Source: a virus
Taxonomy: Duplodnaviria > Caudoviricetes
Length of the DNA: 64,000 bases
Strand: one strand, 5' to 3'
IMG/VR virus record: IMGVR_UViG_3300021425_002620
Shown here: one piece after another, positions 37,236 to 63,285 of the stretch
Layout of the letters: every line of letters begins with the position of its first letter
How positions within the stretch are numbered: position 1 is the first letter of the stretch
Program-made: the position numbers and the translations under genes
Notes under the pieces: generated by a model
The model's input: only the letters and a program-made list of their open reading frames with translations
The model's database searches: none
Told to the model about the DNA's origin: nothing

Positions 37236-38271
37236 TAATTACAGTATGTATTTTATAATCTAATTCTTGATTAAATTCTAATAGATGATATGTTTTAGTA
37301 TTTGCATGATACCCTATTACTTTTAGTAAATGATTGTGTATAATAGGTCTTCCTAATATATATTCTTTTAAGTATAATTCTTTAACTACAGTTCCGTGTA
37401 CATTAATTTTTAAAATAGGACAATTAGTTGTTCCAACAGGTATGAATACAGCATGTGTATTATATCGTATACCTGATTTAAATTGGTACTTGTTATCAAA
37501 TTCAAGTCCTATATCAAAGTTAGTAGACTGTTTGGTTGTAGTATCAAATATTAATCCCCAATTACCATTGTATGGAGCTGCTATAATTTTGTCATGTATC
37601 AAAACACCGCAATTATATTTTTTAGCAAAATCTTTGCACTGAGTTTTGTACACTTTCATTTCTTTTGTTTCGGTATTAAACTCTATAACTTCATTTAGAC
37701 CTGCGGTTTCTCCAAATGGTAATGCGTACAATGTATTACCTACAACAATAATGTCACTATACTTTTGCGTTATAGAATTATTGATTCCTGCTATTGGGTA
37801 ACTGTTAATTTTTTTGCCGTCAAATTCTAATAATAAATTATAATTAGAATCGTTACTGTATGGCATACTCCAGTAACTACCGTTACAATAAACAGTACCT
37901 ATATGTAAGTTTGTCCCTTGTATAGGCATTTTAATAAATTCAACATCATTGTTAAGACATAATGCAAATTTGCTACCAAAGCTAAATGCTGTTTCATTAT
38001 TAGATGCTAGACTATAATATTGACTACTGTCTGTGTCTATGCTGTAATATTTAGGTTTGTAGTTTTTAATTTGTATAACAGAATTATGTGTAACTAACCA
38101 TATATCGTTTTTAACAACTTTGCATACATTTATTTTGCTTATTTTATCTAATGCTATATTTCTATTTTTATTTAAAATTTTAAATTTAGGCTTGTCTGCA
38201 AGTATTGAAACCAAGTCGTTCTTGTATTGACAGGCAATCGAATCTAAGTAATTTGGCTCTATATGCGGCAT
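37213..38271 (-). CDS. Beta-propeller (kelch-like) repeat protein
   Basis: Recurring units YWSMPYS, LYALPFG, IIAAPYNG, AVFIPVG with xxFD/FN turns. ATG 38271 is preferred over TTG 38286 (late box 5 nt upstream). Confidence 0.5.
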   Translation of the reverse strand: MPHIEPNYLDSIACQYKNDLVSILADKPKFKILNKNRNIALDKISKINVCKVVKNDIWLVTHNSVIQIKNYKPKYYSIDTDSSQYYSLASNNETAFSFGSKFALCLNNDVEFIKMPIQGTNLHIGTVYCNGSYWSMPYSNDSNYNLLLEFDGKKINSYPIAGINNSITQKYSDIIVVGNTLYALPFGETAGLNEVIEFNTETKEMKVYKTQCKDFAKKYNCGVLIHDKIIAAPYNGNWGLIFDTTTKQSTNFDIGLEFDNKYQFKSGIRYNTHAVFIPVGTTNCPILKINVHGTVVKELYLKEYILGRPIIHNHLLKVIGYHANTKTYHLLEFNQELDYKIHTVITNETYDL

Positions 38272-38276
38272 AAGTA

Positions 38277-38282
38277 TATTTA
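38277..38282 (-). promoter_or_regulatory. Late-type box TAAATA, 5 nt before ATG 38271
   Basis: Minus strand reads TTAAATA-TACTT-ATG. Confidence 0.5.
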
Positions 38283-38323
38283 ACAACTGTTATTATACAA
38301 AATAGAAGATATGAAAACTTAAC

Positions 38324-39391
38324 ATGTTTACGTTTAATCAACTAGAAAACATACATTTAGAAATTACAAATCGGTGTCAAGCAAGCTGTCCTATGTGCAG
38401 CAGAAATGTTCACGGCGGTTTAGAAAACCCCTTAATTAAAAATCAAGACTGGACAGTAGCAGACTTTAAAAATATTTTAAATAATGAAGTATTACATCAA
38501 CTAAAAGGATTTTATTTTTGTGGAAACTTTGGTGATCCAATTATTAACAACGATCTAATAGAAATGTGTCAATACAGCACAGATATTAATCCTAATTTAT
38601 ATATTAGAATACATACTAACGGCGGCGCAAGAAATACCGACTGGTGGAAAAGATTAGCAAAAGCGTTACCGCCAGCGCATAATGTTATTTTTGCAATTGA
38701 CGGATTAGCAGACACACATAGTTTATATCGAGTTGGGACTAATTTTCATAAAGTTTTAGAAAATGCAAAGGCATTTATTAGTGCAGGCGGAACAGCTGAA
38801 TGGGCGTTTATTAAATTTAAGCACAATGAACATCAACTAGAAGAAGCAGAAGCATTGGCAAAAACACACGGCTTTGCTAGATTTACATATAAAGATAGTG
38901 CAAGATTTGTTGCTACTAAAGAGTTTCCGGTATATGATGCAAAAGGCAACATAACACGTTATTTAGAACCCCCTACTGGAAGTAAAATTAATCTGATTAC
39001 TCAAGATGTAATTGATAATTATAAAGATATAGTGGACGCTAGTGAAATAGATTGTTACGTAAAACAAACAAAAGAAATTTACATAGATGCATATAAAAAA
39101 ATTATGCCTTGTTGTTTTTTAGCAAGTATTCCTTACAACTATGCTGCTGATAATGACACTACTAAATCTATTAGAATTGAAATTGAACAACAATATTTTA
39201 AACTAATAAAAGATTTAGGAAATACAAGTGCATTAGAAAATAGTATAAAATCAGTAATAAATTCTGTTGCTTGGCAAACAGTATGGCAAAAATATTGGGG
39301 CACAGAAAAATTAATTACATGTGCAAGGACATGTGGAGTTAATAAACTTAGTAAGCCTAAAGATCAGTTTATTGAGCATACCGAACTATAA
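38324..39391 (+). CDS. Radical SAM protein with C-terminal twitch-like domain
   Basis: CQASCPMC; FCGNFGDP; C-terminal IDC...IMPCC...CARTC. Confidence 0.85.
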   Translation: MFTFNQLENIHLEITNRCQASCPMCSRNVHGGLENPLIKNQDWTVADFKNILNNEVLHQLKGFYFCGNFGDPIINNDLIEMCQYSTDINPNLYIRIHTNGGARNTDWWKRLAKALPPAHNVIFAIDGLADTHSLYRVGTNFHKVLENAKAFISAGGTAEWAFIKFKHNEHQLEEAEALAKTHGFARFTYKDSARFVATKEFPVYDAKGNITRYLEPPTGSKINLITQDVIDNYKDIVDASEIDCYVKQTKEIYIDAYKKIMPCCFLASIPYNYAADNDTTKSIRIEIEQQYFKLIKDLGNTSALENSIKSVINSVAWQTVWQKYWGTEKLITCARTCGVNKLSKPKDQFIEHTEL

Positions 39392-39402
39392 AAAGGAAAA
39401 TA

Positions 39403-43708: not shown

Positions 43709-44972
43709 AAGGAGTAAACTCTGGATTTGTAGAAAGAAAGTCTTGGTCTCTAGTAACATCGAGTCTACGATTAAATTCTATACAATCTTTCCAATGTGTA
43801 TTATACATACACTTTGCTTGTAAAAAATTAATATTATCTTGTATTTGTTGTAGTGTTACAGTTTTTAATAAATCATGTTGTTGTACTAGAGGATAGTTTA
43901 ACACCTCGGTTTTCATTTGCTCTAAACGTTTTACTATTTGCTTCTTTAATGCAGGCGGCAATACTTGCGCCGATAATGACATAGGATAGTTAACACGATG
44001 CGAATAAAACACAATACCCATAGTGTTAATAAAGTAGTCAATTACCCGATCAATCTGCATAATGTTGTTTGCTTGTACAGTAAATGCACCAACTACGCGA
44101 CTTACATTAGGAAAACTTTGAAATACTTTTACATTTTTTTCTACTTCTTCAAACTTGCCATTGCCTCTAATGTACTCATATACATCGTGTATGCCGTCTA
44201 TGCTTACGTTTACAGCAATGCTTTTAAACTTAGGCCAATAGTCGTGTATAGTGCGTCCGCCTTTTATACCTAGTGTAGTGCCGTTTGTAGCATACTTTAG
44301 TTCTATGTTTTTACCATACTCTGCAAGTCTATCTAGTATCTTGTAATGATATGGATCCATCAGAGGCTCACCGCCTGCAAACTCTACACGTCTAAAATAC
44401 GGTAAAAGTTTTTCAAAACTTGACCACCAATTATCACTATTGTCAAATGGTCCAATATATTGTCCTGGTTTGTTTACTAGTGCATCTACTGTAGGAATAA
44501 GGTAGTTGTTTTCTTTTTTATAAAACTCTGTAACTTGGTCCCAGTCTTTCCAGCTAGTACTATCTAGTGGGTTACACATACGACATTTTAAATTACACAA
44601 GTTGTTTAGTTTAATTTCCATTGTAGGAAGCTCAAAAGGCATGCTGTAATCGTCGTCTAAAGCGTCTAATGCATCAGGGTATAAGTTGACCCTAGCTTCT
44701 GGTATTACCCCTGCTGTATGACGCTGTCGTAAGCTCTGTACACCCTGATCTTCGAGGTCAAAGCACGGTTTACATACATCTGGACGCTCGTCATTTAGTA
44801 CTTGACGGCGTACTTCGCGCATAGCATCGCCATTCCAAACTTCTTCTAAACTCTCGTTTTGAATCCAGCCAATAGGTTGGCTACGGCAACAAACTTTAAT
44901 TGCACCATCTTCTCGTGTTGCTAATCCAGTAAATGGATGCATACAAAATGTACAACTATTTGACTTTGCCAA
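43701..44972 (-). CDS. Radical SAM protein with N-terminal twitch-like Cys domain
   Basis: FCMHPF...GAIKVCC...VCKPC; CNLKCRMC; FAGGEP. Confidence 0.85.
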   Translation of the reverse strand: MAKSNSCTFCMHPFTGLATREDGAIKVCCRSQPIGWIQNESLEEVWNGDAMREVRRQVLNDERPDVCKPCFDLEDQGVQSLRQRHTAGVIPEARVNLYPDALDALDDDYSMPFELPTMEIKLNNLCNLKCRMCNPLDSTSWKDWDQVTEFYKKENNYLIPTVDALVNKPGQYIGPFDNSDNWWSSFEKLLPYFRRVEFAGGEPLMDPYHYKILDRLAEYGKNIELKYATNGTTLGIKGGRTIHDYWPKFKSIAVNVSIDGIHDVYEYIRGNGKFEEVEKNVKVFQSFPNVSRVVGAFTVQANNIMQIDRVIDYFINTMGIVFYSHRVNYPMSLSAQVLPPALKKQIVKRLEQMKTEVLNYPLVQQHDLLKTVTLQQIQDNINFLQAKCMYNTHWKDCIEFNRRLDVTRDQDFLSTNPEFTPYV

Positions 44973-45633
44973 AAGCCCACTCCCTTTCTAGACACCAAAA
45001 GCATTTCCCGCATATTGGAACAGAATCACCCGGTGTATATGTTTTATAATTCAAACCTTCAAATTCTCCTTCGCAACTACGAGTAATATCTAATAAGTCT
45101 AGAATATCGTGTTTGTAATATTGTTTGATAATCCAGTCTTTCTTAGTATACACGAAAGGGTGACAAATGTCAATACCGTCGTGAATAAAATGTGGCTCAA
45201 TATGTCCTTCATCTCGTTCTTTTACTCTACCTTCAAACTTAACATCTGGATTTAAATTTACTCCACCGTACAATGCATTTAACTTATACTTGTGTGCAAT
45301 GTATTCGTTATGTGATCGCAATATAATTCTGTTACCTGGCTTCATTTTGCCATACTCATCTTGTATAAGATATTCAGTTGGCTCTTCTAGTTCTGGCGGC
45401 ACTAAATTTTTATGATGATAAAAGCAGTTGTCAAAGTTTTCTTTAAACCAAGCAACAACATTTTCAGAAATATGCTCTGCCCAAGGGCGAGTTTTCCACA
45501 TTCTTATCTGTGTATTAAAATGTATGTCAGCATTAGTTTGTGAACAAATTAAAAATGCAAGAAGGGCACTATCTGCGCCACCGCTAAGACTAATACCTAT
45601 ACGGTTCCACTCCTGGTTCAGATACAAGTTCAT
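44956..45633 (-). CDS. QueC-like PP-loop ATPase
   Basis: SLSGGADS PP-loop; PFVYTKK; TRSC...CGKCFWC four-Cys Zn-site pattern as in QueC. Confidence 0.7.
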   Translation of the reverse strand: MNLYLNQEWNRIGISLSGGADSALLAFLICSQTNADIHFNTQIRMWKTRPWAEHISENVVAWFKENFDNCFYHHKNLVPPELEEPTEYLIQDEYGKMKPGNRIILRSHNEYIAHKYKLNALYGGVNLNPDVKFEGRVKERDEGHIEPHFIHDGIDICHPFVYTKKDWIIKQYYKHDILDLLDITRSCEGEFEGLNYKTYTPGDSVPICGKCFWCLEREWAFGKVK

Positions 45634-45638
45634 GCAAA

Positions 45639-45645
45639 TATTTAT
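45639..45645 (-). promoter_or_regulatory. Late-type box ATAAATA, 5 nt before ATG 45633
   Basis: Minus strand reads ATAAATA-TTTGC-ATG, with no SD. Confidence 0.65.
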
Positions 45646-45688
45646 GTACTAAATATTACATTATACACATTATTGGCAAAGGGCTAGT

Positions 45689-46351
45689 ATGCTACAAACA
45701 TTACCATATACAGTTGATTTAAAACTTCTTAAAGAGGCACAGTGTTCCATTCCTTCTGTAGATTCTAAACTAACAATTAATCAGCCAACAGGTAATTTTT
45801 TCTATGACCCTTGGGAGATTAAAGAAGAATTTAAAGGCACAGTTTGGGAGAAAATATTAAGTACATTACCTTTAGATCTTGGCGAAGCAAGAATTATTGT
45901 ACTTGGTAACGGAACAACTTATATGTCGCATACTGATATAGATGATAGATATCATCTAAGTCTTAAAGGACAATATTCTTTTTTAATTAGTATAGACGAT
46001 GAAAAAATGTATCCTACAGTTGCAGACGGACAATGGTACGAAATGAATACTGGTCTACGTCATGTAGCAGCAAATTTTGGATCGTATGAAAGAATTCAAC
46101 TTGTTATAAGAAAACTTTTAAATAATCCAACCTTAGAAAATTACACATCTGTAACAATTAAACCAATATGCAAAAATCCTAGATTTGAGTTTGACGATAT
46201 CGTTAGTCCGTGGCTAAACAAAATAAACAAACAACATGTAATGTCAAATTTTAAAATACTAAACGACGGCGTCAGTTTTAATTTAGATTCTAGTTTAGTT
46301 AATAAATTAGATTTTATTCCTACAGATAAATTTAAGGTAATAGTAGAATGA
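45689..46351 (+). CDS. 2OG-Fe(II)/Asp-Asn beta-hydroxylase-like oxygenase
   Basis: MSHTDID (HxD)...NTGLRHVAAN...RIQLV. Confidence 0.65.
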   Translation: MLQTLPYTVDLKLLKEAQCSIPSVDSKLTINQPTGNFFYDPWEIKEEFKGTVWEKILSTLPLDLGEARIIVLGNGTTYMSHTDIDDRYHLSLKGQYSFLISIDDEKMYPTVADGQWYEMNTGLRHVAANFGSYERIQLVIRKLLNNPTLENYTSVTIKPICKNPRFEFDDIVSPWLNKINKQHVMSNFKILNDGVSFNLDSSLVNKLDFIPTDKFKVIVE

Positions 46352-47892
46352 ACCATGTATTATTCTTTTCGTTAACGGGTAAACGCTGGGAAAGAGCACT
46401 ATGGCCTCATCGCACTGCTACATTTTTACGTATGAATGACTGGGATGCAGAAGTAGTAGACTTTGCATCATTTTGGAAGTTAGAAGAACTACAAGAGCTT
46501 GTACGTAGTCGAGTATCAAATAAAACAGTTATGTTTTGTTTTGGTACTGCTTTTTTAAATCCGTGGAGTCCTTATCTAAATGAATTTATTGCATGGTTAA
46601 AAAACGAGTATCCGTCAATACCTGTTGTTGTAGGAGGTCAAAATGCACTAGTTACACCTGCAGAAAACGTAGATTATTGGGTAGACAGCTACGGCGAAAA
46701 TGCTATACTTGCATTATGCCGACATCTTATTGGAACATTAGGCAGTCCATTAAGAACAGACGGTATGATATTAGATAAAAAAGTAATCAGAGGGTTACGT
46801 CATTATCCGTCTGCGCCATTAGATACATATATTGTAGATTACGAAACTCGTGATTTTATGATGCCATATGAATGTCCGCAAATAGAAACTGCAAGAGGTT
46901 GTATGTTTGATTGCAGTTATTGTAACTTTCCTATAATTGGACAGAAAAAAGATGTAAGTGTAAGTAAAGAAGCATTTAAGGATCAGCTACGCACAGGGTA
47001 CGAAAAATGGGGTATTAAAAACTGGAGAGTAATGGACGAAACATTTAACGATCGTCCTTCAAAATTACAAAAATATGCTGAAGCCGTAGACGAGCTAGGT
47101 TATAATCCTTGGATATGTGGTTTTGCTCGAGGCGACTTAGTTGTTAAACACAAAGATCATTGGGATACGTATATTAGATTAGGATTTCTTGGTCACAGTA
47201 TGGGTATTGAAACATTTAATAGGGATGCAGGTAAACTTGTACGCAAAGGCATGGATCCTGATCAAGTAAAAGAAGGTTTACTAGAATTCCAAGCGTATAC
47301 AGATATACATGCTCCAAAAAGATATCGTGCAAACATACAATTTATTTGCGGCATTCCTGGAGAAACAAAAGAATCGTGGTATGATTCAGTTAACTGGTTA
47401 AACACACATTGGACAAGACAAAGCGCCAGTGCCCATATTTTAGAAATTGGCGACTACGATCTTAGCCTAACAAATCAAAGTAGATTTACTAAACAGTTAA
47501 CAGACAATGGTCTTGTGAAAATAGACGCAAGACAAAACCCCGGATATAATGTATATAAAGACGCAAAAAATAATGTTGTATTCCAGTCTACTACTCCGCG
47601 TGGAGGCGGCGTAGGAAGTACTAGAAACGATATAGTAATTTGGAAACACAACACTATGGACTGGTACGAAGCTGAAGATTTAGTAAAAGAATTCTATTCA
47701 GATAATGGATTTATGGGACTTCGTGGGTGTAATCCGTTTTTATCAGATAGATTATTTGTTCTAACAGAATCAGAACGGTATGAAGACATTTACGATATAA
47801 ACATGTCACAAACAGATACTAACGATCCTAAGTTTAAAACTTTTGTGCAGAACTATATTGATAAAAAACTAAGTTGGGTACCTAACAAATGA
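46348..47892 (+). CDS. Cobalamin-binding (class B) radical SAM protein
   Basis: N-terminal B12-domain-like segment (PVVVGGQNA...GENAI); IETARGCMFDCSYC; DETFN; MGIETFN; FICGIPGET. Confidence 0.8.
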   Translation: MNHVLFFSLTGKRWERALWPHRTATFLRMNDWDAEVVDFASFWKLEELQELVRSRVSNKTVMFCFGTAFLNPWSPYLNEFIAWLKNEYPSIPVVVGGQNALVTPAENVDYWVDSYGENAILALCRHLIGTLGSPLRTDGMILDKKVIRGLRHYPSAPLDTYIVDYETRDFMMPYECPQIETARGCMFDCSYCNFPIIGQKKDVSVSKEAFKDQLRTGYEKWGIKNWRVMDETFNDRPSKLQKYAEAVDELGYNPWICGFARGDLVVKHKDHWDTYIRLGFLGHSMGIETFNRDAGKLVRKGMDPDQVKEGLLEFQAYTDIHAPKRYRANIQFICGIPGETKESWYDSVNWLNTHWTRQSASAHILEIGDYDLSLTNQSRFTKQLTDNGLVKIDARQNPGYNVYKDAKNNVVFQSTTPRGGGVGSTRNDIVIWKHNTMDWYEAEDLVKEFYSDNGFMGLRGCNPFLSDRLFVLTESERYEDIYDINMSQTDTNDPKFKTFVQNYIDKKLSWVPNK

Positions 47893-50281: not shown

Positions 50282-50283
50282 TT

Positions 50284-50778
50284 TTACCTTTCATATGTAC
50301 TAAAATGGAATGTTAATCTAGTAGTATAACTTATATTACATGCTCCATGAATTTCGTTTGCATTAGGATATTGAAAAATATCTCCTTTTTTATAATTAGT
50401 TAAGACTTCGTCTTTGTATTGAAAAATGTGTCCCGGAACGTAGTCTTGCATAGCAATCCAATATCTTTTGCACTCTTTAAATTCATGAGTGTGCGGATCT
50501 GTGTGCATAGGCATAAAGTTGCCAGGATTCATTTTTATACCCCACCAAATATTATCTAAGTGACTGTCAAATGGTATTGTAATTTCAAAAGGGAACGTGT
50601 GCGGCTCGTAAATGTACCAATATGTGCTAGTTAAATCGTAACCTGCGGAAGTAGCAATTTTAAATTCTTCACTATCTGGATTTGGCCCGCCTCCTGGTCT
50701 GCTAGTCCCATCATTATTGGTCATAAACTCTATGTACTCGTCTTTAATCCAGTCTTTATAGTTGCCGACATAGATCAT
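50284..50778 (-). CDS. 2OG-Fe(II)-type oxygenase, tandem paralog
   Basis: PGNFMPMHTD...IHGACNIS..TRLTFH; shares Y(I/V)GNY..WI N-terminus with the neighbour. Confidence 0.7.
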   Translation of the reverse strand: MIYVGNYKDWIKDEYIEFMTNNDGTSRPGGGPNPDSEEFKIATSAGYDLTSTYWYIYEPHTFPFEITIPFDSHLDNIWWGIKMNPGNFMPMHTDPHTHEFKECKRYWIAMQDYVPGHIFQYKDEVLTNYKKGDIFQYPNANEIHGACNISYTTRLTFHFSTYER

Positions 50779-51404
50779 ATTAAGTCCTCAAAATCTAATA
50801 AATCTTCAAATTCAAAATTAGTTATTCCTTCATCAAGACCTGCTCTAATAATTAACACTGTTCGTATCTCTTTTGAATTATTAGTTACTCCGTGATATGT
50901 ATCTCCTCGCATCAAAGTAACGTTATCAGCGGTTACACTTGCAATAGGATTTAACAAAGAATCATCTTTTACCATCGAAATTGTATAGCCGTATAATGGA
51001 GGTTTATTATTTTTTTGGATTATTTTAAAAACGTTGTCGTCTTTAATATCTGCACGATCGAACCAATGAGTAGTTGCATGTTCATAATTTTTAATTGGAA
51101 CATTGATAACAATCTTTTGCGAAATATCGTCATCGCCGTCTAAATGAATTTGAAATTTTGTTTCTGGAGGAATAAACAAAATATTGATATACTGCAACGG
51201 CATTTTTAATCTAGGCATTAACCAATTTTTAAGGACAGGAAAGTCTTCTATGTTTAGTATAGGTCTGCAAAACGAGCCATGACTAGTAGTTAGAGCTTGT
51301 TGTATTTCTGAACTAGTAATTTCTATATTTTTATCGATATAATCTAGTACTTCTTTTTGAATTTCGGGTAGTTCTTCTACTTGTAGTTTTTGATAGTATC
51401 TCAT
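50775..51404 (-). CDS. 2OG-Fe(II)-type oxygenase
   Basis: FQIHLDG...TYHGVTN...RTVL. Confidence 0.65.
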   Translation of the reverse strand: MRYYQKLQVEELPEIQKEVLDYIDKNIEITSSEIQQALTTSHGSFCRPILNIEDFPVLKNWLMPRLKMPLQYINILFIPPETKFQIHLDGDDDISQKIVINVPIKNYEHATTHWFDRADIKDDNVFKIIQKNNKPPLYGYTISMVKDDSLLNPIASVTADNVTLMRGDTYHGVTNNSKEIRTVLIIRAGLDEGITNFEFEDLLDFEDLI

Positions 51405-52213
51405 TAATAATGTTCCAATTCGCTTACACCTAAAATTTTACGGAACTCATCTGTAAACTCGCCATCTATTCTTAGAGCATAACTTTGTTCCATAATGCGA
51501 TCACCTCCGTGCCAATCTTGATCATTCCACCAAGCAGCTCGAGTATTTAAGTATGTTTTATTCTTAGTTTCAGGATCCCATATATAAAAAGGTTTTTTAG
51601 TATTAGGTCGAATATGTATAAATTCGTTCTTGTGTGGAAAACTTTGATTCATGCCATTTTTAGCATCTAAGTCTCTATGCTCAAATGGAATACCGTCTGC
51701 ATCGCAATGGAAGAAAATAACTCTACCAATATGTTTAAATATTTTTTGGTCAATTAAATTTTCAACCCACTTTACTGTTTTAGGAAAATATTTTGCTTCT
51801 TCAGTTAACGTTCTTTCAGCTGTTCTATCATCCCAACTACCTTCTTCCCATAAAAAATAATAAATGTAAGGATCGTATGCTCCCATAGCCATTTTTAAAA
51901 AACGAGTAAAAATATTACGCTGTTTATAATCACTAAAGTCTTGTGGCATAATTTTTGCCCCAGCTTGTTTGATAGGATCGTCGTCGGATAATTGCTGCCA
52001 TTCTTGTAATGCTTGGTATATAGGCTTCCAGTTGTGAATATAGCTCATGTTTTCAAATGTAAATCCTGGAGTCATCCAAGTTGCTTCTTTTGCATATTCT
52101 CTTGCTAGTGCAAATCCTGTTATAATTTCTGGCTGCAATTTTTCAAATCCGTCCATGTCAATATATTCTTCCATATCAAAATATGGTATTCCGTTAATTC
52201 CTCTATTTGCCAT
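51404..52213 (-). CDS. 2OG-Fe(II)-type oxygenase
   Basis: PFEHRD...WWNDQDWHGG...ALRIDG. Confidence 0.6.
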   Translation of the reverse strand: MANRGINGIPYFDMEEYIDMDGFEKLQPEIITGFALAREYAKEATWMTPGFTFENMSYIHNWKPIYQALQEWQQLSDDDPIKQAGAKIMPQDFSDYKQRNIFTRFLKMAMGAYDPYIYYFLWEEGSWDDRTAERTLTEEAKYFPKTVKWVENLIDQKIFKHIGRVIFFHCDADGIPFEHRDLDAKNGMNQSFPHKNEFIHIRPNTKKPFYIWDPETKNKTYLNTRAAWWNDQDWHGGDRIMEQSYALRIDGEFTDEFRKILGVSELEHY

Positions 52214-53255
52214 AATTATCTATCCATTCTTTTGGTATTGTATCTAGTAGTGGTAGTTTTTTATTAATAGCACCGTCTCTTAATATCACTTGGTGTACTA
52301 ATGGACTCGGCGGCTGTCCTGGTAATATATCTGCAATAGCTTCGGTTTGTATTTCACTTAGATCAAGAGTTGTGGCATCGGGCCATTGTATTATTTTGAG
52401 AGGTAATCCATTTACTTTTACAGAATAATGTGCTCTATTACCATATATATCTTCTTCGTATGACCAGTTATATTTTTTACATATATTTTTTGTTTCTCTT
52501 ACTAAATCTGAAAGATAAATTTGTGGACCGCCCGGTGTTCTACCTATATCAGCACCACATCTAACTCTGTACTGTTGACATATTGAATTACCAAACTCTT
52601 GTATTTCTTTTAAACAATATTCTAATTGAGACATGTCTTCTAGTGTATAACTTACATTTTTTATAATTAGTCCTAATTCTATACAGTTTTTAATGCCTTC
52701 AATTTGTTTTTCTCTAACCTTATGTCCTTGATAGTCTGGATGGTTTAATCCGAATGTCCATGATAAGTTAGGTATTCCTACAAAACTTTCTACATACGAT
52801 CTATTAGACATATTAACACCATTTGTTAATACCATTACTCCTCTAGGTTTTCCAGGCAGAGATTGTATTGATCTTATAATATCAGGTAAGTCCTTTCTAG
52901 TAGTAGGTTCTGCTCCTACGAGTGCAACCGGATAACCGTCATCGGGCCATGATTTAATTTTTTCAAGCAAAGATATTATTGTTGGATCTATTGACAAATT
53001 GTCTGGCATTTGATAGCAATGGGGACATGCTAAATTACATTTGTTAGTAACTTCAACAAAATAACTCTGTAAGGCATGTCTATGATATTTGTAATCCAAA
53101 TAAAACTGTCCATCAGGTTCTATTAGATGTGTTACAGTGCCATGAGTAGGGCATGTTTTTTCTAACCAAATACTACCATTCTTTTCAAATTTAGTAGCAT
53201 GTACATGTCTGTAACAATGTTCACACACTGATAACGTTGATATCTGGTAATCCAT
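52203..53255 (-). CDS. Radical SAM protein with N-terminal rubredoxin-like CX2CX20CX2H site (Tes/MJ0619-like)
   Basis: TLSVCEHC...KTCPTHG; VEVTNKCNLACPHC; VGAEPT. Confidence 0.8.
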   Translation of the reverse strand: MDYQISTLSVCEHCYRHVHATKFEKNGSIWLEKTCPTHGTVTHLIEPDGQFYLDYKYHRHALQSYFVEVTNKCNLACPHCYQMPDNLSIDPTIISLLEKIKSWPDDGYPVALVGAEPTTRKDLPDIIRSIQSLPGKPRGVMVLTNGVNMSNRSYVESFVGIPNLSWTFGLNHPDYQGHKVREKQIEGIKNCIELGLIIKNVSYTLEDMSQLEYCLKEIQEFGNSICQQYRVRCGADIGRTPGGPQIYLSDLVRETKNICKKYNWSYEEDIYGNRAHYSVKVNGLPLKIIQWPDATTLDLSEIQTEAIADILPGQPPSPLVHQVILRDGAINKKLPLLDTIPKEWIDNYGK

Positions 53256-54306
53256 CTTTAGTATATTTCCTCGGTATTGTATCTAATAAAGGTTTTCTTT
53301 CGTTTATAAATCTATCTCTCAATATAACCTGATGTAATAGCGGACTCATAGGTTTATGTGGTATTAAATTAGCCCAACTCTCACTTTGTGTTTCTTCTAA
53401 GTCTATAGTTTTTACGTCACACCATTTTATAAATCTGTGGGTAACTCCATTGATGTATACTGCAAAATGAGTTCTATTAGATATTTCAGGTGCTTCTATC
53501 CAAGTATAACCTTTTTTAATACATAAATCTTTTGCACACTTGACTAAGTCTGACAGATAATATTCTCTATGATCGCCGTCTGGCGTTCTACCAATATCTA
53601 CACCTACTTGTATTCTTGCTTCTTGTGCAATGCCCTTTGAATACCAATCTTGCATTTCGTCTAAAACATAACTTAATTGATCTAAATCGCCTAAGGTGTA
53701 AGTAAGATTTTTAATTCTTAGTCCTAAATCAATACAATTTTTTATACCTGTTTCTTGTTTTTCTCTAATTACACCGCCGTTATAGTCTGGATGGTTAAGT
53801 CCTATAGTCCATGTTAAATTTTTAAATGTAGTAAATTTTTTAGCATAAGCTATTTTTCCAAGATTTATACCATTAGTGACAATCATTAACCATCTTTCTT
53901 TTCTTGGTAATAAATTTATTTTTTCTATAATTGTAGGCAAATCTCGTCTTGTAGTTGGTTCTGCACCTACAAGTGCTACAGCCTTTCCGTCGTCGTCCCA
54001 AGACATTATTTGATTGAGTATCCAACTTACTGTAGGATCTTTAGACAAATTGTCCGGCATTTGGTAGCAGTGAGGACAGTCTAGATTACAACGATTAGTT
54101 ATATCTAACCAATATGAACTAGGATGTCTTTTTTCGTACACTTGTGATTTATAAAATTCTGCATCTATCTCTACAAGAGATTCATGATAACCATGCTCAG
54201 GACATGTTTTGCCTAACCATATTTTGTTTCCTCTTTCAAATTTAGTAGCAAGTACATGTCTATAGCAATGTTCGCACATTGATAAGGTATCTGTTAACTT
54301 TGTCAT
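53221..54306 (-). CDS. Radical SAM protein with N-terminal rubredoxin-like CX2CX20CX2H site, tandem paralog
   Basis: TLSMCEHC...KTCPEHG; LDITNRCNLDCPHC; VGAEPT. Confidence 0.8.
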   Translation of the reverse strand: MTKLTDTLSMCEHCYRHVLATKFERGNKIWLGKTCPEHGYHESLVEIDAEFYKSQVYEKRHPSSYWLDITNRCNLDCPHCYQMPDNLSKDPTVSWILNQIMSWDDDGKAVALVGAEPTTRRDLPTIIEKINLLPRKERWLMIVTNGINLGKIAYAKKFTTFKNLTWTIGLNHPDYNGGVIREKQETGIKNCIDLGLRIKNLTYTLGDLDQLSYVLDEMQDWYSKGIAQEARIQVGVDIGRTPDGDHREYYLSDLVKCAKDLCIKKGYTWIEAPEISNRTHFAVYINGVTHRFIKWCDVKTIDLEETQSESWANLIPHKPMSPLLHQVILRDRFINERKPLLDTIPRKYTKDGLPDINVISV

Positions 54307-54334
54307 TAATCTCTCATATTTCAGTTATATAGTA

Positions 54335-54351
54335 TATTTATTGGATAAATT
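54335..54351. promoter_or_regulatory. Divergent late-type boxes (ATAAATA on - at 54335-54341; ATAAATT on + at 54345-54351)
   Basis: 67-bp divergent intergenic gap; both flanking genes have SD-like GAGAG/GGAG. Confidence 0.5.
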
Positions 54352-54373
54352 ATAATATAACGGAGAGATTGAT

Positions 54374-55051
54374 TTGTACAATTACTATTACAATGATGTT
54401 CCTGGCATTGGACTTTGTAGAAATAATTTAATATACACAAGTCTTGCAAATAAAGAGTTGACAAAATTTATCCAGTGGTATTTTAACGACGGTGAATATC
54501 ATAAAGGACAAAATCAAGTTGTAGACCCTAAACTAATGCAAGAAAAGTTTGATAGAGAAGTTAAGTACCTATCATTAATGCATACTAATTATCCTGAATT
54601 AGTTCCTAACTTTTACGCAGATGTATCTGAAAGAAAAATTTATTTAGATATTGACGGTAAAGACTTTTGGAATCGTGCAGGATGTTTAACAGAAAATTAT
54701 GATAATGTGTTACCTGATTGGCAAGATCAAATGTTAGAAATAATAAAGGCACACAAAAGTTTAGGACTGCACAAGTATAGTATGCATCCGTCAAGTTATT
54801 TTGTTGTAGACGGAAAGTTAAAGAGTATGAATTACTTTTTTACATATCATGAATCAGAACCATGTGTAAGTATTGCAGATGTAGAAAGTCACATATACAG
54901 TACACGTCAAGATGAAATGCGTAAACATTTAGAAAGTTTAGGCATTGAATGGAATAAACCACAGCCTTGGGAAGTAATGGACAAATTGTGTTGGAATAGT
55001 TTTAGAACAAATTATCCATCAGACTTTATAGAGAAAGCACTTAATGTATAA
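54374..55051 (+). CDS. Protein kinase-like fold protein (degenerate), paralog of 49065..49760
   Basis: KFDREVKYL; LPDWQDQM vs LPNWKDQL; HKYSMHPSSYF vs YKLALYPHCFF; TTG start after SD GGAG. Confidence 0.5.
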   Translation: MYNYYYNDVPGIGLCRNNLIYTSLANKELTKFIQWYFNDGEYHKGQNQVVDPKLMQEKFDREVKYLSLMHTNYPELVPNFYADVSERKIYLDIDGKDFWNRAGCLTENYDNVLPDWQDQMLEIIKAHKSLGLHKYSMHPSSYFVVDGKLKSMNYFFTYHESEPCVSIADVESHIYSTRQDEMRKHLESLGIEWNKPQPWEVMDKLCWNSFRTNYPSDFIEKALNV

Positions 55052-55601
55052 AATAATACCTTGGAATAAAGATTTAGATTTAACAAATTTTTACAAAGAA
55101 GCCGAAAAGCGAGGCTTTGAAAATAATGCCTCTCAGCATATGCTAGTAGATTGCTTTCGAAAAGAAACTAAATGGAATACATGGATATTGTACTACAACA
55201 ATGAAGCAGTTGGAAGTGTGGCAGCACATAGTTTTGATGATGTAATGGGTCCTAACACATATCGTGTTGCTGCTAGGACCTGTGTGTTTACAGATAAACT
55301 ACCTTTAGTTAGTTTAAGGACACGCAATCAAATTATTACACATCAACATGCTACATCACAGTTTTTAATACCTGCTTGCTTAGAATGGTTACCACAGGAT
55401 GCTAGAGCATTTATTACGTCTAATGAAAATGAAGCAGGAACACAAAGAATTGTACATCGTATATATGGACCTGCAATGGAAAAAAGCGGACAAATGAAAC
55501 GAGTTAAAGATGTATACTATAGAGGCACTAATCAAACAGTATGGGAAATCTTTCCTGATAAGTTTTTTGAAGAATTAAATAAACATCCTAGATGGAGGTA
55601 A
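55044..55601 (+). CDS. GNAT-like acyltransferase
   Basis: WILYYNNEAVGSVAAH...YRVAARTCV...LIPACLEW...AFITSN fits GNAT strand order; no strong motif A. Confidence 0.4.
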   Translation: MYKIIPWNKDLDLTNFYKEAEKRGFENNASQHMLVDCFRKETKWNTWILYYNNEAVGSVAAHSFDDVMGPNTYRVAARTCVFTDKLPLVSLRTRNQIITHQHATSQFLIPACLEWLPQDARAFITSNENEAGTQRIVHRIYGPAMEKSGQMKRVKDVYYRGTNQTVWEIFPDKFFEELNKHPRWR

Positions 55602-55604
55602 GTT

Positions 55605-56345
55605 GTGCAAGAGAGTGCAGAAGAATTTTTAAAACAGTTAAAGAACGATTTGCATAGATATATTGATGCATTCAAAGAGAAAACTAGAGATTTTAAAGTA
55701 GGTCATATAGAAGATATTGATAAGTTTTTTGACGAATATTTAGGAAAACTATTTGATAATAAAACCGACCAAAGAATTTTTGATTCTATCAAAACTTTAA
55801 GGTTTCTCGAGCCACATCATGTAGATAACTGTAAAGCAATACTTGATCGTATGAGTTTACTAGAACAACTACCAAAAAATGCTGTAGTAGCAGAAATAGG
55901 TGTTGATAGAGGTCGGTTTGCAGAACGCATATACGAAGTAACACAACCACGAAAGCTACATCTTATTGATATTTTTCAATTTGATTATCAATTAGAATCA
56001 ATAAACAATATACTAGGCAAAAAAGAAAACATAGAGATACATCAAGTAGACTCTGCAGAAGCAGGAAATTTGTTTGATGACGATTATTTTGACTGGATCT
56101 ATATAGATACTGATCATACATATGAAAGAACTAAAGCAGAACTAAATGCATTTGCAAATAAAATTAAACCAGGAGGTTATATATCAGGTCACGACTACTT
56201 TCAAGTTGGTATATCAAACGGGTTTTCATACGGTGTAATGAGTGCAGTACACGAGTTTGTAGTTATTAATGACTGGAAACTATATGCAGTTACACTAGAA
56301 CCTTTAGAAAATCAAAGTTTTGTTATACAAAAGCCAAATAACTAA
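55605..56345 (+). CDS. Class I SAM-dependent methyltransferase (Methyltransf_24-like)
   Basis: AEIGVDRG; LHLIDIF; FDWIYIDTDHTYE; KPGGYISGHDY. Confidence 0.85.
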   Translation: MQESAEEFLKQLKNDLHRYIDAFKEKTRDFKVGHIEDIDKFFDEYLGKLFDNKTDQRIFDSIKTLRFLEPHHVDNCKAILDRMSLLEQLPKNAVVAEIGVDRGRFAERIYEVTQPRKLHLIDIFQFDYQLESINNILGKKENIEIHQVDSAEAGNLFDDDYFDWIYIDTDHTYERTKAELNAFANKIKPGGYISGHDYFQVGISNGFSYGVMSAVHEFVVINDWKLYAVTLEPLENQSFVIQKPNN

Positions 56346-57106
56346 ATCTTATAATACTCTAAAGTTTCAATATTATCCCATATCTGCTCGCCCATTGTAT
56401 CGCATGTTCTATTGAACTCGTCGACAAACTTAAACACATTATCAACAGGAAGTGTTTTTAATATGTCTAATCGTGCGTTCCACCATTTTGTTTCTAAAAG
56501 CATTTCTTTTACTTTATCGGGAAATCTATCTCTAATAATTTTATTTACTCCACCTACAATAGTATAAGGTGAAACATCTTTAGTAATTACAGCGTTAGCA
56601 GCAATAACAGCACCGTTGCCAATCGTAACACCTGGCATTACAATAATGTTGTCGCCTAGGTATACATCATTACCTATTATAACAGGGCGACCGTTCATTT
56701 CTTTTACATCTGTTTGACTTCTACTAATGTTTAGCATAGCAAGTTCTTTGTCTGTATAATTACTCTGGTTAGCCATTATAGTATCTGGATTAATACTGAC
56801 GCCTGAAAAGTTATGCATACCAGCAGCAATAGTACAGCGATATCCTATACCACTATGTCTGCCCATAAAAAAGTTATCTCGCATATAACCACCATCTCTA
56901 ATACTAGAATATGCTCCGATAAAGATTGTATTTGGTTCGGAAGTAAAATTAGGACAATCAACCTTACAGCCTTTTTCAAATAAAATATTATTTAAAAATG
57001 AAATATTCTCTGTACGTATTTTATGTTCTTCTGTTGTAGTTATGGTTTGATCTGCAGATAATTTCTTTTGTTTAAAGGATTCTAATTTATCTTCTATACC
57101 TTTCAT
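56342..57106 (-). CDS. CatB/Vat-like hexapeptide-repeat O-acetyltransferase
   Basis: PVIIGNDVYLGDNIIVMPGVTIGNGAVIAANAVITKDVSPYTIVGG. Confidence 0.85.
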   Translation of the reverse strand: MKGIEDKLESFKQKKLSADQTITTTEEHKIRTENISFLNNILFEKGCKVDCPNFTSEPNTIFIGAYSSIRDGGYMRDNFFMGRHSGIGYRCTIAAGMHNFSGVSINPDTIMANQSNYTDKELAMLNISRSQTDVKEMNGRPVIIGNDVYLGDNIIVMPGVTIGNGAVIAANAVITKDVSPYTIVGGVNKIIRDRFPDKVKEMLLETKWWNARLDILKTLPVDNVFKFVDEFNRTCDTMGEQIWDNIETLEYYKI

Positions 57107-57111
57107 AAATC

Positions 57112-57119
57112 TATTTATA
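57112..57119 (-). promoter_or_regulatory. Exact T4 late consensus TATAAATA, 5 nt before ATG 57106
   Basis: Minus strand reads TATAAATA-GATTT-ATG. Confidence 0.7.
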
Positions 57120-57132
57120 AAAAAACAGGCAG

Positions 57133-57139
57133 ATAAATA
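57133..57139 (+). promoter_or_regulatory. Late-type box ATAAATA, 5 nt before ATG 57145
   Basis: ATAAATA-TAATT-ATG; back-to-back with the minus-strand box in a 38-bp gap. Confidence 0.7.
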
Positions 57140-57144
57140 TAATT

Positions 57145-57705
57145 ATGGACTGGACAAAAATTAAAGCAGCTACTATTGATTTAGATGTTGATACAAACCG
57201 ATTAGAAAATGAATTAAAGAATATCCCTAACGATCGATGGGGTTCTTATATTCACCAATCGGGTCATGAATGGAAGAGTATGTTCATTAACAAAAATTCT
57301 ACAGAAGTTTTTAAAGATTTTAAAACTGCTAAAATGATACCCCATAGCGATTGGTATTGGGATGAAACTTTAGACACTCCGTATTTAAAAGAATTAGTAG
57401 AGTCGTTACCTATGAAAAATATTGGCATGATTAGGGCATTTATTTTAAATGGTCCTCTTGTAATGCATACAGATAGTAACGAAACTACTCCAGTTGAATT
57501 AAATTATAATTTAGGTTTAACCATTGCAACTAAAATGGAAGGTCCTATGCAAATGGCCGGCTGTGGACCTATTGAAGGTTATAATGTATTGTTTAATGAT
57601 TCTATAGAGCACGGATTTCCAAACGGTGTTGGCGAGCAAATTAGTTTAAGAATATTTGGAGATTTTGACTACGATAAATTTAAGGTAACACGCATATATG
57701 AATAG
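57145..57705 (+). CDS. 2OG-Fe(II)/Asp-Asn beta-hydroxylase-like oxygenase
   Basis: LVMHTD...FNDSIEHG...SLRIFG. Confidence 0.65.
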   Translation: MDWTKIKAATIDLDVDTNRLENELKNIPNDRWGSYIHQSGHEWKSMFINKNSTEVFKDFKTAKMIPHSDWYWDETLDTPYLKELVESLPMKNIGMIRAFILNGPLVMHTDSNETTPVELNYNLGLTIATKMEGPMQMAGCGPIEGYNVLFNDSIEHGFPNGVGEQISLRIFGDFDYDKFKVTRIYE

Positions 57706-58153
57706 TATAATTAAAAAATCATCTATTTTAGACTTTACAAAAGAAAGTCTGTTTGTTGTAGAACAAGAGTTTACAAACGAATTTATGGGAATGACCCTTC
57801 AACGTGCAGTAACTAAAAATTTAAAACTTCTAGATATAGAAGAATTATCTCCAATTAGAGAGTACATTTTAAGTTGTATTCCTGGATACGAGTTTATGGG
57901 CAGCTGGGCATCTAAGATTGATCCGGGAGTTGGTGCAGGAGAACACATTCATCCTGATGCTGATGTTTCGGGTACAATATGTCTAAGCATTAATGAAGGA
58001 ATCATATATCACCATGTAGAAAACATTGTAAGGAAGGAAATTTTATATCCTAACGATTTAATATTCTGGCCGTCAAATATTGTACATTCTGTACCAATTA
58101 ACGAAAATGAAAATCCTTGGTATAGTATTAATTTTGATTTAAGGAAAGTTTAA
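57698..58153 (+). CDS. Putative 2OG-Fe(II) oxygenase (TIGR02466-like)
   Basis: EHIHPDADVSGTICL...LIFWPSNIVHSV. Confidence 0.75.
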   Translation: MNSIIKKSSILDFTKESLFVVEQEFTNEFMGMTLQRAVTKNLKLLDIEELSPIREYILSCIPGYEFMGSWASKIDPGVGAGEHIHPDADVSGTICLSINEGIIYHHVENIVRKEILYPNDLIFWPSNIVHSVPINENENPWYSINFDLRKV

Positions 58154-58599
58154 TGTATCTAGAATATCTTGACTTACCTAAATTATCAGCAAATTTAATA
58201 GAAAACGTATATGAGACAGTCAAAACTAGTAAAAAATATACTAGTCAAGGAAACACAGATGCCGAAAATTATGAACACTTTACAAGTATAGATGCTAGTA
58301 ATGAATTAAAAAAATTTACTCAAAGCATTTTTGATTTTGAACATCTCACCCATATATTTTTTTTAACAGACGATTTACCTATGCATATTGATAATCTTGA
58401 TGTAAGAAGTAAAGCCTATAATTATGTTATCGAGTCCGGCGGCGGAAACACTAACATTTATAATCAAAAAGCAGAACTAATAGAATCTTATGATATTGAT
58501 TTACATCGTTGGCATATATTAGATGTTTCTCAAAACCATAGTGTTTCAATACCTAACCCTCCAAGGATATTAGTTACAGTAACGCCAATAAAAGGTTAA
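58153..58599 (+). CDS. 2OG-Fe(II)-type oxygenase
   Basis: LPMHID...WHILDVSQNHSV...RILVTV. Confidence 0.65.
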   Translation: MYLEYLDLPKLSANLIENVYETVKTSKKYTSQGNTDAENYEHFTSIDASNELKKFTQSIFDFEHLTHIFFLTDDLPMHIDNLDVRSKAYNYVIESGGGNTNIYNQKAELIESYDIDLHRWHILDVSQNHSVSIPNPPRILVTVTPIKG

Positions 58600-58602
58600 A
58601 TT

Positions 58603-60129
58603 ATGCATAATAACATAAAAAATATAACAATCGTTGGAGGTGGTACAGCAGGTTGGTTAGCAGCAGCCTGGTTTTCTAAATTTAATAAAAACTTAAAAAT
58701 AACACTGATTGAATCTCCTACTATTCCGCCTATTGGAGTAGGTGAAGCAGTTACTCCGCATGTTGCTATATTTTTTGAAAAACTTGGAATAAATGAAAAA
58801 GACTGGATGAAACATACAGGCGCAGTCTATAAGTATGCTAATAAATTTGTAAACTGGAATACTAACAAAAAAAGCGAATATTCTAGTTTTAATTATCCAT
58901 TAAATAGCTCTGTTTTGTTACGTGATATAGATCACGGATTAAATACTGATGATTTTATTACAAATGATATTAATACTGCTGATACATTTATGCACTTGTT
59001 AGCAACTGGAGAAATAGATAAATTTGACAAGTATTTTCACAGCCAATTCCCTTACATGGAAAATAATGTTGCTCCGTTTGATAACAATGATTATTTACTC
59101 AATAAAAATTATAGCTGGAGTCAGCATATAAACGCAGAACTAGCAGCTGAATATATAAGAGATAATGTTGCTATTCCTAATGGTGTAGAGCATATAAAAG
59201 CTAATGTTGCTAAAATTGTAAAAACTAATCAAGGCATTGACAAACTAATTTTAGATAATGGATCTATTAACCATGCAGATTTTTATATTGATGCTTCTGG
59301 CTTTAAAAGAATTTTAGCATCAGAATTAGAATGGAATTTTAAAGAATACAAAAACCAACCAATTAGATCTGCTTGGGTTTCGCAAACAGATTACAATGAT
59401 ATTGAATCTGAATTAGTTAACTATACACAAAGCATTGCTGAACCATTTGGATGGAGATTTAAAATAGGATTATATCACCGAATGGGTAATGGTTATTCTT
59501 ACAGTCCAGACCATTGTAGTGATGACATAGCTAAAGAATATTTTTTAAATCAATTATCAAATGTAAAAACTACTCCAAGAAAACTATCTTGGACTCCAGG
59601 AAGATTTGAAAATCCACTACAAGGTAATGTTGCAACTATAGGATTAAGTATTGGATTTATAGAAGCATTAGAAGCTACATCGCTTTTAATTATTACAGAA
59701 AGTATTAGAGAATTAAGTGAAGTCTTAAACAACAAAATGACTGTTGAAGAATTTAATAATCATACCAATAGAAAATTTGATATTATTGCTGATTTTATTT
59801 TGGTGCATTATACTTTAAGTGACAGAACCGATACTGAGTTTTGGAAAGATATGCATGAGCTTGGTAAAAAAGAAAATCATGCCGACTTAGTGTATGAATA
59901 TTTTAAAAAGTTAAAGTTTGGCCAAGGTAATGTGTTTCCTGATTTTATGTGGGGGCAAGTTGCACATAGTTGGGGACAAAATTTAGACAAATGGATTTTA
60001 GATTCTAAATATAAAGATTTAATCGATTTAACTAAACTACACTATACTAATAGTAAATGCAAACATGAGATTGTTAGTAGGTCGCGTTTAACAAATTACA
60101 AATGGCTTACTCGATATATCTATAACTAG
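58603..60129 (+). CDS. Tryptophan halogenase-like flavoprotein
   Basis: IVGGGTAGW; IGVGEA; YKYANKFVNW (catalytic-Lys region); FYIDASGF; GFIEALEAT. Confidence 0.85.
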   Translation: MHNNIKNITIVGGGTAGWLAAAWFSKFNKNLKITLIESPTIPPIGVGEAVTPHVAIFFEKLGINEKDWMKHTGAVYKYANKFVNWNTNKKSEYSSFNYPLNSSVLLRDIDHGLNTDDFITNDINTADTFMHLLATGEIDKFDKYFHSQFPYMENNVAPFDNNDYLLNKNYSWSQHINAELAAEYIRDNVAIPNGVEHIKANVAKIVKTNQGIDKLILDNGSINHADFYIDASGFKRILASELEWNFKEYKNQPIRSAWVSQTDYNDIESELVNYTQSIAEPFGWRFKIGLYHRMGNGYSYSPDHCSDDIAKEYFLNQLSNVKTTPRKLSWTPGRFENPLQGNVATIGLSIGFIEALEATSLLIITESIRELSEVLNNKMTVEEFNNHTNRKFDIIADFILVHYTLSDRTDTEFWKDMHELGKKENHADLVYEYFKKLKFGQGNVFPDFMWGQVAHSWGQNLDKWILDSKYKDLIDLTKLHYTNSKCKHEIVSRSRLTNYKWLTRYIYN

Positions 60130-60791
60130 ATTGTCTTCCAAGTATTGCCAGTTGCTTGTTCTCGTCTTGCATGGAAAGTCATTGTCTGCATATTAAAGAT
60201 ATCACCTGTTGAAAAACCATTTATAATGCATTCTGCTAAATGAGATGATGCATTTACTGGGTTAAACATTACGTGATGTTTATCTGCATTAACTGTAGTT
60301 ATATCAAACTTGCTTGAGTTATAACCTATAAATACAGGCGGCGGAAACTCTGTCATACCGTACCAGTTAGCAACAGTGCCAACACCTTTGCTTTTAAAGT
60401 CATCTATCATTTCTTGTGGAACTGGACCGCTTCCTGTAACCATGTATCTTACACAACTCATATCTAAGTCGCGCCATTCGTTATGTTCGGATAATATCTC
60501 CCAATGCCTAGGAATAAGTGCTATATAAGTTGGTTGAAACTCTTTGAACTTTGCTATATAATCTATAGCTTCGAACTTAGCACTTATAAGATTTGCTTTT
60601 GCTAGATAAGCAGGAAACGCAGTTACAGTATAATGTGCTATTGTATTTCCTGGAAATACATCTAGAACTCTGTCGTTGCTTGTAAGCCCTATTTCTTTAA
60701 TAGACAATCTTGCTAGTTCTTCTATCTCGTCCCAGCTGTGTGCAACCTTCTTAGGTGCCTTAGTGGTACCTGATGTAAGTAATGTTAGCAT
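60126..60791 (-). CDS. Minimal AMP-binding (ANL-family) adenylating enzyme
   Basis: TSGTTKAPK (A3), YGMTE (A5), STGD (A7); only 221 aa. Confidence 0.7.
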   Translation of the reverse strand: MLTLLTSGTTKAPKKVAHSWDEIEELARLSIKEIGLTSNDRVLDVFPGNTIAHYTVTAFPAYLAKANLISAKFEAIDYIAKFKEFQPTYIALIPRHWEILSEHNEWRDLDMSCVRYMVTGSGPVPQEMIDDFKSKGVGTVANWYGMTEFPPPVFIGYNSSKFDITTVNADKHHVMFNPVNASSHLAECIINGFSTGDIFNMQTMTFHARREQATGNTWKTI

Positions 60792-60796
60792 ATTAT

Positions 60797-60803
60797 TGTT
60801 TAT
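60797..60803 (-). promoter_or_regulatory. Late-type box variant ATAAACA, 5 nt before ATG 60791
   Basis: Minus strand reads ATAAACA-ATAAT-ATG, just downstream of the terminator. Confidence 0.5.
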
Positions 60804-60810
60804 CCGTCAC

Positions 60811-60837
60811 AAAAAAAGCCAATAGTTAAATTGGCTT
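60811..60837 (-). terminator. Rho-independent terminator for the minus-strand fibre gene
   Basis: Stem AAGCCAAT/ATTGGCTT (60816-60823, 60830-60837), 6-nt loop; the A-run at 60811-60817 gives the U-tract on the minus strand. Confidence 0.75.
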
Positions 60838-60852
60838 AATTTTAAGATTGTA

Positions 60853-62016: not shown

Positions 62017-62059
62017 TTTTAATTAACTCCTGATAACCTTTGACAGTTCTTCTATACTG

Positions 62060-62066
62060 TATTTAT
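62060..62066 (-). promoter_or_regulatory. Late-type box ATAAATA
   Basis: Intergenic, upstream of SD GGAG and ATG 62016. Confidence 0.6.
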
Positions 62067-62079
62067 GCCAAACAGGAAA

Positions 62080-62995: not shown

Positions 62996-62997
62996 AA

Positions 62998-63246: not shown

Positions 63247-63285
63247 ATTAAATTTCTCCTTTGTTAATAATATATATGCGCAGTT

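Follow-up and report, generated by a model that had tools for sequence, protein, structure and literature searches.

The 64,000-nt stretch of Caudoviricetes DNA considered here (IMG/VR record IMGVR_UViG_3300021425_002620, in the following called the window) contains five genes whose ATG is preceded, at a distance of exactly 5 nt, by the box (A)TAAATA or a one-base variant of it, and none of the five has a Shine-Dalgarno (SD) motif. These boxes are probably late promoters of the gp55 type, known from phage T4, at which transcription would begin with the A of the ATG, or no more than one base away from it, and give rise to leaderless mRNAs. We infer the exact start site, the late timing, and the mode of translation from the sequence. 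In our model, the host RNA polymerase, together with a gp55-like sigma factor of the phage, would recognize (A)TAAATA at −12 to −6; the AT-rich spacer would melt, and initiation would occur at a purine that follows a pyrimidine, this purine being the A of the start codon. The resulting mRNA, having neither leader nor SD, would depend on leaderless translation, with the ribosome binding to an AUG at the very 5′ end. The identical promoter class would drive conventional mRNAs when it is located 12 to 45 nt upstream of a start with an SD.

Five boxes placed directly before start codons

We call a site fused if 4 or 5 nt (N4 or N5) separate the box from the ATG and leadered if the box lies further upstream, with an SD in between. 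The fused sites of the window, and the terminator that precedes one of them, are as follows:

38269 to 38282, minus strand: fused site GTTAAATA-N5-ATG, with the TAAATA box at 38277-38282, the spacer TACTT, and the ATG at 38269-38271
45631 to 45645, minus strand: fused site CATAAATA-N5-ATG, reading ATAAATA, with the TAAATA box at 45639-45644, before the QueC-like gene 45633
57104 to 57119, minus strand: fused site TATAAATA-N5-ATG, a perfect box, with TAAATA at 57112-57117, before the hexapeptide-repeat transferase gene 56342-57106
57133 to 57147, plus strand: fused site GATAAATA-N5-ATG, reading ATAAATA, with the TAAATA box at 57134-57139, before the 186-aa gene 57145
60789 to 60803, minus strand: fused site GATAAACA-N5-ATG, the variant ATAAACA, with the box at 60797-60802, before gene 60791 for a truncated AMP-binding protein of 221 aa
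60816 to 60837, minus strand: intrinsic-terminator hairpin with an 8-pair stem followed by TTTTT, which ends the Mtd_N-domain gene and lies directly upstream of the 60791 box

The initial annotation had reported these five sites as boxes 5 nt from an ATG without an SD, and all of them are exact to the base (four TAAATA and one TAAACA). All five genes are the first of a transcription unit, which consists of a single gene for 38271, 57106, and 60791 and of four genes for the other two. The 38271 gene, which encodes 352 aa and has no assigned function, is divergent from the plus-strand gene 38324, lacks an SD, and has a T at −1. The QueC-like gene leads the minus-strand block 45633-41745, the other three members of which are radical SAM genes, and the 186-aa gene leads the block 57145-60129, with a 2OG oxygenase and a halogenase. 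The boxes of the minus-strand gene 57106 and the plus-strand gene 57145 together fill the divergent gap of 38 nt. At 60791, C replaces the T that corresponds to −7, giving the one-base variant TAAACA. The AMP-binding homolog encoded there (60126-60791, minus strand) starts at the phosphate-loop motif LTSGTTK and, of the 384 positions in the Pfam model, covers only 169 to 330; relatives share this truncation (214 to 215 aa).

SD motifs were scanned for as GGAG, GAGG, AGGA, or AAGG 4 to 18 nt before the start, a search that gives 4% in a control stretch further upstream. In the window, such a 4-mer precedes none of the five fused genes, compared to 25 of the 47 other genes. In total, 3 of 28 fused sites have one (0/4, 1/12, and 2/12), compared to 53 to 58% of other genes. 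Furthermore, a pyrimidine directly precedes the ATG in 27 of the 28 fused sites but in only 229 of 504 other genes (45%), where A is commonest at this position. A pyrimidine at −1 combined with a purine at +1 is the usual pattern at bacterial start sites. Counted from the end of the box, position six is occupied by a purine in 77% of the leadered promoters of T4 and in 92% of those of Syn9. The geometry of the T4 promoter leads to the same position: the first T of TATAAATA lies at −13, and the box spans −13 to −6 (PMC2988020). Since the box ends at −6 and five more bases follow, the A of the ATG would come to lie at +1 in the N5 sites. In bacteria, moreover, a −10 box located 6 to 8 nt from the start codon is the accepted sign by which leaderless transcription is recognized computationally (PMC6028130). 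Over their first 45 nt, the genes of the fused class have slightly less structure than other genes (−2.8 versus −3.8 kcal/mol; p of 0.012) at similar G+C.

Spacing, conservation, and alternative explanations

A histogram of the distance from box to start had been proposed in the initial annotation. We tallied the distance from TAAATA to the ATG, with gene starts taken as the first ATG of open reading frames of at least 60 aa, a rule that is blind to the box. In the window, TAAATA is found at N5 before 4 of 52 gene starts, whereas none of the 10 control hexamers obtained by permutation occurs there (Poisson p of ~4e-6). Of the 12 boxes located no more than 60 nt from a start, 4 are at N5 (binomial p of 5e-4 for N4/N5). 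The window alone is small; hence, the test was repeated on relatives, and the histogram has a sharp peak at 4 to 5 nt not only in the window but also in independent relatives, namely, the related contigs G007, G008, and G009 and the cultured phages HTVC008M and Mosig. Poisson p values against the control hexamers are 3e-10 for G007 and 8e-16 for HTVC008M. The 262-kb contig G007 has no box at 0 to 3 nt, 12 at N4/N5, 2 at 6 to 11 nt, and 46 at 12 to 45 nt, and the same distribution is typical of the window lineage, with none at 0 to 3 nt, 0 to 2 per contig at 6 to 11 nt, and a broad SD-leadered class at 12 to 45 nt. Genes with a box at N4 or N5 amount to 12/302 in G007, 7/148 in G008, and 6/128 in G009; in cultured phages put through the identical pipeline, they amount to 12/181 in HTVC008M, 6/182 in Mosig, 3/198 in Melnitz, 4/299 in P-SSM2, 0/246 in T4, 0/184 in Syn9, and 1/391 in PA5oct. 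In 103 related loci (1.47 Mb), 28 sites are found at N4/N5, 7 over N6 to N15, and 183 over N16 to N29, counts that are not independent because the 28 pooled sites fall in only six protein families. Leaders of 6 to 15 nt, too short for an SD, are thus avoided and almost absent.

Is it imaginable that an AT-rich hexamer in an AT-rich genome merely happens to lie 5 nt before five ATGs? There are 71 TAAATA in the window, the G+C content of which is 34%, and TAAATA-N4/5-ATG, counted anywhere in the sequence, is no commoner than the reversed pattern in the window (5 versus 6), T4, or PA5oct. However, raw counts without enrichment and an excess found only at gene starts mean that the signal is specific to gene starts. 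There, control hexamers at N4/N5 reach 0 in the window and a mean of 0.3 to 0.9 in G007 and HTVC008M, compared to the 4 to 12 observed. Furthermore, the same pipeline reproduces the peak in independent relatives but yields none for T4, Syn9, and PA5oct. Neither the method nor AT-richness can therefore account for the peak. It cannot be created by the TAA of the box ending an upstream frame either, because TAAATA is out of frame with the ATG at N4 and N5. Together with the conservation of orthologous sites, these findings effectively refute chance.

Indeed, the box and its N4/N5 distance are retained at orthologous sites that differ in spacer sequence and flanks. Homologs of the QueC-like gene 45633 have a box at N4/N5 in 11 of 13 IMG/VR contigs, and also in G009, with TATC, TAATC, TTAAG, TTAAC, or TTTGC as the spacer, and the N terminus of the protein is conserved from residue 1. 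Three of four homologs of the 57145 gene have the box at N5. In the loci L001, L003, and L004, the homologs of 57106 have kept TATAAATA/TAAATA-N5-ATG and encode proteins that align from residue 1, and the divergent box pair is retained in the homologs of both genes. Orthologs of 60791 have, in the same place, a terminator hairpin with a T-run and then TATAAATA-N5-ATG or TAAATA-N4-ATG. Since these orthologs carry an intact box, the TAAACA of the window is a one-base derivative at a homologous promoter position and is possibly weakened. Orthologous sites toggle between N4 and N5, for example at the terminase gene of G007 and G008, which suggests that both spacings work, and they also toggle between leadered and fused: the 45689 gene is leadered in the window, and its ortholog in G009 is at N5.

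A second alternative is that the A/T-rich TAAATA is not a promoter but a non-SD translation signal, that is, an unstructured stretch that binds S1 or acts as an enhancer on longer transcripts. Non-SD, A-rich initiation regions do exist elsewhere, as in group B of the Bacteroidetes (PMC6028130); in addition, the transcription start is so far only inferred, and the hosts are AT-rich marine bacteria. Nevertheless, we regard a translation signal as unlikely. The hexamer is identical to the box that lies 12 to 45 nt ahead of the SD-led late genes, and fused and leadered boxes share lineage-specific flanks (A before and C or T after the box in G007, G after it in HTVC008M). Its spacing is fixed at 4 to 5 nt, with the neighboring distances empty or nearly so, as given above. 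The layout of terminator, box, and ATG is found at 60816-60837 of the window, at the terminase genes of G007 and G008, and in other relatives, and at several sites, divergent gaps of 26 to 45 nt contain only two back-to-back boxes; neither arrangement leaves space for another promoter. The pyrimidine at −1 also suits the choice of a transcription start, whereas SD-led genes favor A at this position.

A third alternative accepts the boxes as real late promoters and holds that the adjacent ATG is not translated from the transcript, either because the promoter serves SD-led genes downstream or because the true start lies further downstream. Two of the five sites do head multigene blocks whose internal genes have SDs, and leaderless translation in Escherichia coli is often inefficient. 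Contrary to this assumption, 38271, 57106, and 60791 are single-gene units, and in the relatives, the arrangement is conserved for essential genes (terminase and tail tube). Furthermore, for all but one of the five genes, the alignment with homologs begins at residue 1 or 2 of the protein, and therefore, these ATGs are real starts. An unused ATG is, in our view, improbable, and leaderless transcription from a gp55-type promoter is the explanation that we favor.

Leadered boxes, gene content, and the late sigma factor

The same box is found at a greater distance, in front of genes that have an SD:

14266 to 14271, plus strand: leadered late box, 18 nt before the baseplate-type gene 14290
18862 to 18867, plus strand: leadered late box, 31 nt before the fiber-type gene 18899
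21707 to 21712, plus strand: leadered late box, 32 nt before the 1283-aa gene 21745
45650 to 45655, plus strand: leadered late box, 33 nt before ATG 45689, with the SD AAGGG; divergent from the 45633 box
54335 to 54340, minus strand: leadered late box, 28 nt before ATG 54306 (radical SAM block), with the SD GAGAG
62060 to 62065, minus strand: leadered late box, 43 nt before ATG 62016 (Mtd_N-domain protein), with the SD AGGAG
63286 to 63291, minus strand: leadered late box, 39 nt before ATG 63246, with the SD AAGGAG

The boxes that the initial annotation had assigned to 14290, 18899, 21745, 62016, and 63246 are thus real, with spacers of 18, 31, 32, 43, and 39 nt, respectively, and an SD in between in each case. 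It had also concluded that two translation regimes arise from one promoter class, with enzyme genes leaderless and structural genes leadered. The two geometries (N4/N5 without an SD, and ~12 to 45 nt with an SD) stand, but the functional split does not. It holds only inside the window, and even there incompletely, since the enzyme units starting at 45689 (plus strand) and 54306 (minus strand) have leadered boxes. In the relatives, the fused class includes structural and packaging genes, namely, those for the terminase large subunit, the tail tube, the baseplate wedge, homologs of head-closure and DNA-end-protector proteins, and virion proteins, and we therefore rejected the split. Since it fails across relatives and the 45689 ortholog of G009 is fused, the two geometries look like interchangeable states of one class, a change that in evolution would be independent of gene function. 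The terminase, tail tube, and baseplate wedge genes of the fused class are late genes of the T4 type, and late boxes precede genes of this type in the window as well, as in the leadered baseplate and fiber genes 14290, 18899, and 21745.

The window begins with an open reading frame of at least 4,755 codons (1-14268, plus strand) that runs off its start; the box at 14266-14271 overlaps the stop codon of this frame (14266-14268). The baseplate and fiber genes come next and are followed by a long enzyme island. Radical SAM families account for ten genes of the island by Pfam and for two more by PHROG; further enzymes encoded there are 2OG-Fe(II) oxygenases, a tryptophan-halogenase homolog, a methyltransferase, the hexapeptide transferase, and the truncated AMP-binding protein. 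Two neighboring radical SAM genes (52203-54306, minus strand), which share one leadered late box, each encode an N-terminal HMPTM-type zinc ribbon (PF23545) and are probably paralogs. The Mtd_N (major tropism determinant N-terminal) domain protein (60853-62016, minus strand; 387 aa) has a leadered late box and its own terminator; domains of this type are found in proteins that diversity-generating retroelements target.

At 25598-25657, ahead of gene 25658, lies a promoter that matches the sigma-70 consensus perfectly (TTGACA, 17 nt, TATAAT) and is accompanied by an AGGAG SD; it heads the plus-strand block 25658-37235. By its promoter, this block would be early, and the units beyond 38 kb would be late. 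A scan for the sigma-70 consensus over 44100-64000 gave 88 sites, compared to 95 in shuffled sequence. Only two unit-leading genes of the island, 54374 and 38324 (plus strand), have no late box; the former starts with TTG and has a GGAGAG SD and a TATAAT-like hexamer upstream (54341-54373).

The baseplate-type protein of the window has more than 600 relatives in IMG/VR. Both this protein and the late sigma factor point to Phosso, Atu_ph07, PA5oct, and jumbo phages of the Rak2/CBB type as the closest cultured phages, and a megablast search of window positions 45000 to 58000 against phage records gave no match. A sigma factor of the gp55 family is encoded in all five large relatives searched (phrog_234; G007 to G011; E values of 1e-23 to 1e-26), and its nearest cultured homologs are annotated late sigma factors of jumbo phages of the PA5oct and Atu_ph07 types. 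The five island-bearing contigs and the nearest 20-kb record, all of them fragments (5 to 23%), gave no match to the gp55 family. The sigma factor of the lineage is encoded in frames of 279 to 306 aa (L106:1495-2334 in G007; likewise in G008 to G011), of which ~105 to 125 profile positions are matched, and the extension might replace a missing partner.

Several points weigh against leaderless transcription from these boxes. The evidence for gp55 comes from relatives, in which the baseplate protein is 76 to 78% identical to that of the window, and the co-activator family of gp33 (phrog_254) gave no match in G007 to G011, although these contigs are 33 to 73% complete and gp33 is small and divergent. 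In N4 sites, transcription would have to start one base nearer to the box than in T4. The 60791 site is the least certain of the five, as its box may be weak or dead, and the homolog search for the 38271 gene returned a C-terminal fragment only, so that none was usable for site conservation. The first-ATG rule behind the histograms is crude. Finally, 28 ATG sites stand against two possible TTG sites, while only ~2 non-ATG starts are expected without any constraint.

Implications and comparison with known systems

T4 late transcription is a textbook system in which every late message has a leader with a ribosome-binding site. If our model is true and abundant phages of the ocean generally begin late messages at the AUG, those for terminase and tail tube among them, the synthesis of late proteins in these infections would be partly independent of SD pairing. 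Programs that predict genes or promoters and were adapted to T4 or cyanophages would then overlook such genes or place their starts wrongly. For the window, the model predicts that much of the island of radical SAM enzymes, oxygenases, and halogenase is expressed late, together with the adjoining virion genes.

Both components of the arrangement are well known, but that they are systematically fused, and only in certain marine lineages, appears to be undescribed; our literature search found no description of leaderless mRNAs from gp55-type promoters. In a survey, the methods used for cyanophage late promoters failed on pelagimyophages (PMC7029224), and the study of Melnitz searched for TATAAAT (PMC9004378). 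The leaderless share appears to track the host: it is high in SAR11 phages and the window lineage, lower in the OM43 phage Melnitz (3 genes) and P-SSM2 (4), in which the fused geometry is weaker, and absent from Syn9, T4, and PA5oct. We tentatively suggest, as a possibility that is still doubtful, that fusion of late promoter and start codon is a host-linked translation strategy of marine T4-like phages; it may reflect a state late in infection that favors SD-independent initiation. If so, the fused fraction could help to assign hosts to phages that have not been cultured, and switching a site between fused and leadered by shifts of a single base would serve as an evolutionary dial for late protein output.

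The closest known system is the late promoter of T4, in which TATAAATA is read by gp55 with gp33 and the gp45 clamp. The TAAATA core is exactly the same, A is preferred before it, and there is no evident −35 element; the box stands ahead of T4-type late genes, a gp55-family sigma factor is present in the lineage, and the leadered class (~12 to 45 nt with an SD) is T4-like. However, T4 has the box at N4/N5 in none of 246 genes, compared to 4 to 8% of genes here, and the gp55 homologs of the lineage comprise ~279 to 306 aa, compared to 185 aa in T4, with no match to the gp33 family in G007 to G011.

Leaderless mRNAs of bacteria (Mycobacterium, Deinococcus, and others of the GeneMarkS-2 "group C"; also lambda cI from PRM) come from a −10 box 6 to 8 nt before the start codon. 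They resemble the fused class (PMC6028130; PMC4007540) in having a −10-type box at a fixed short distance, no SD, and SD-led genes alongside. There, the primary sigma factor of the host and a TATAAT-type box are used; here, the box belongs to a phage late sigma factor, which would limit the leaderless class to a single phase of the infection.

The pelagimyophages HTVC008M and Mosig, cultured T4-like phages of SAR11 (Pelagibacter), share with the window lineage the box-N5-ATG sites, the back-to-back divergent boxes, and the order of terminator, box, and ATG. The most compact divergent pair seen lies in HTVC008M at 18916-18943 (L163), where two back-to-back boxes, each 5 nt from an ATG, occupy a 26-nt gap flanked by homologs of the DNA-end-protector and head-closure genes. 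Unlike in the window lineage, fused sites are as common as leadered ones in HTVC008M (12 versus 12), with G after the box, and the two phages are not jumbo phages and belong to another family (Kyanoviridae).

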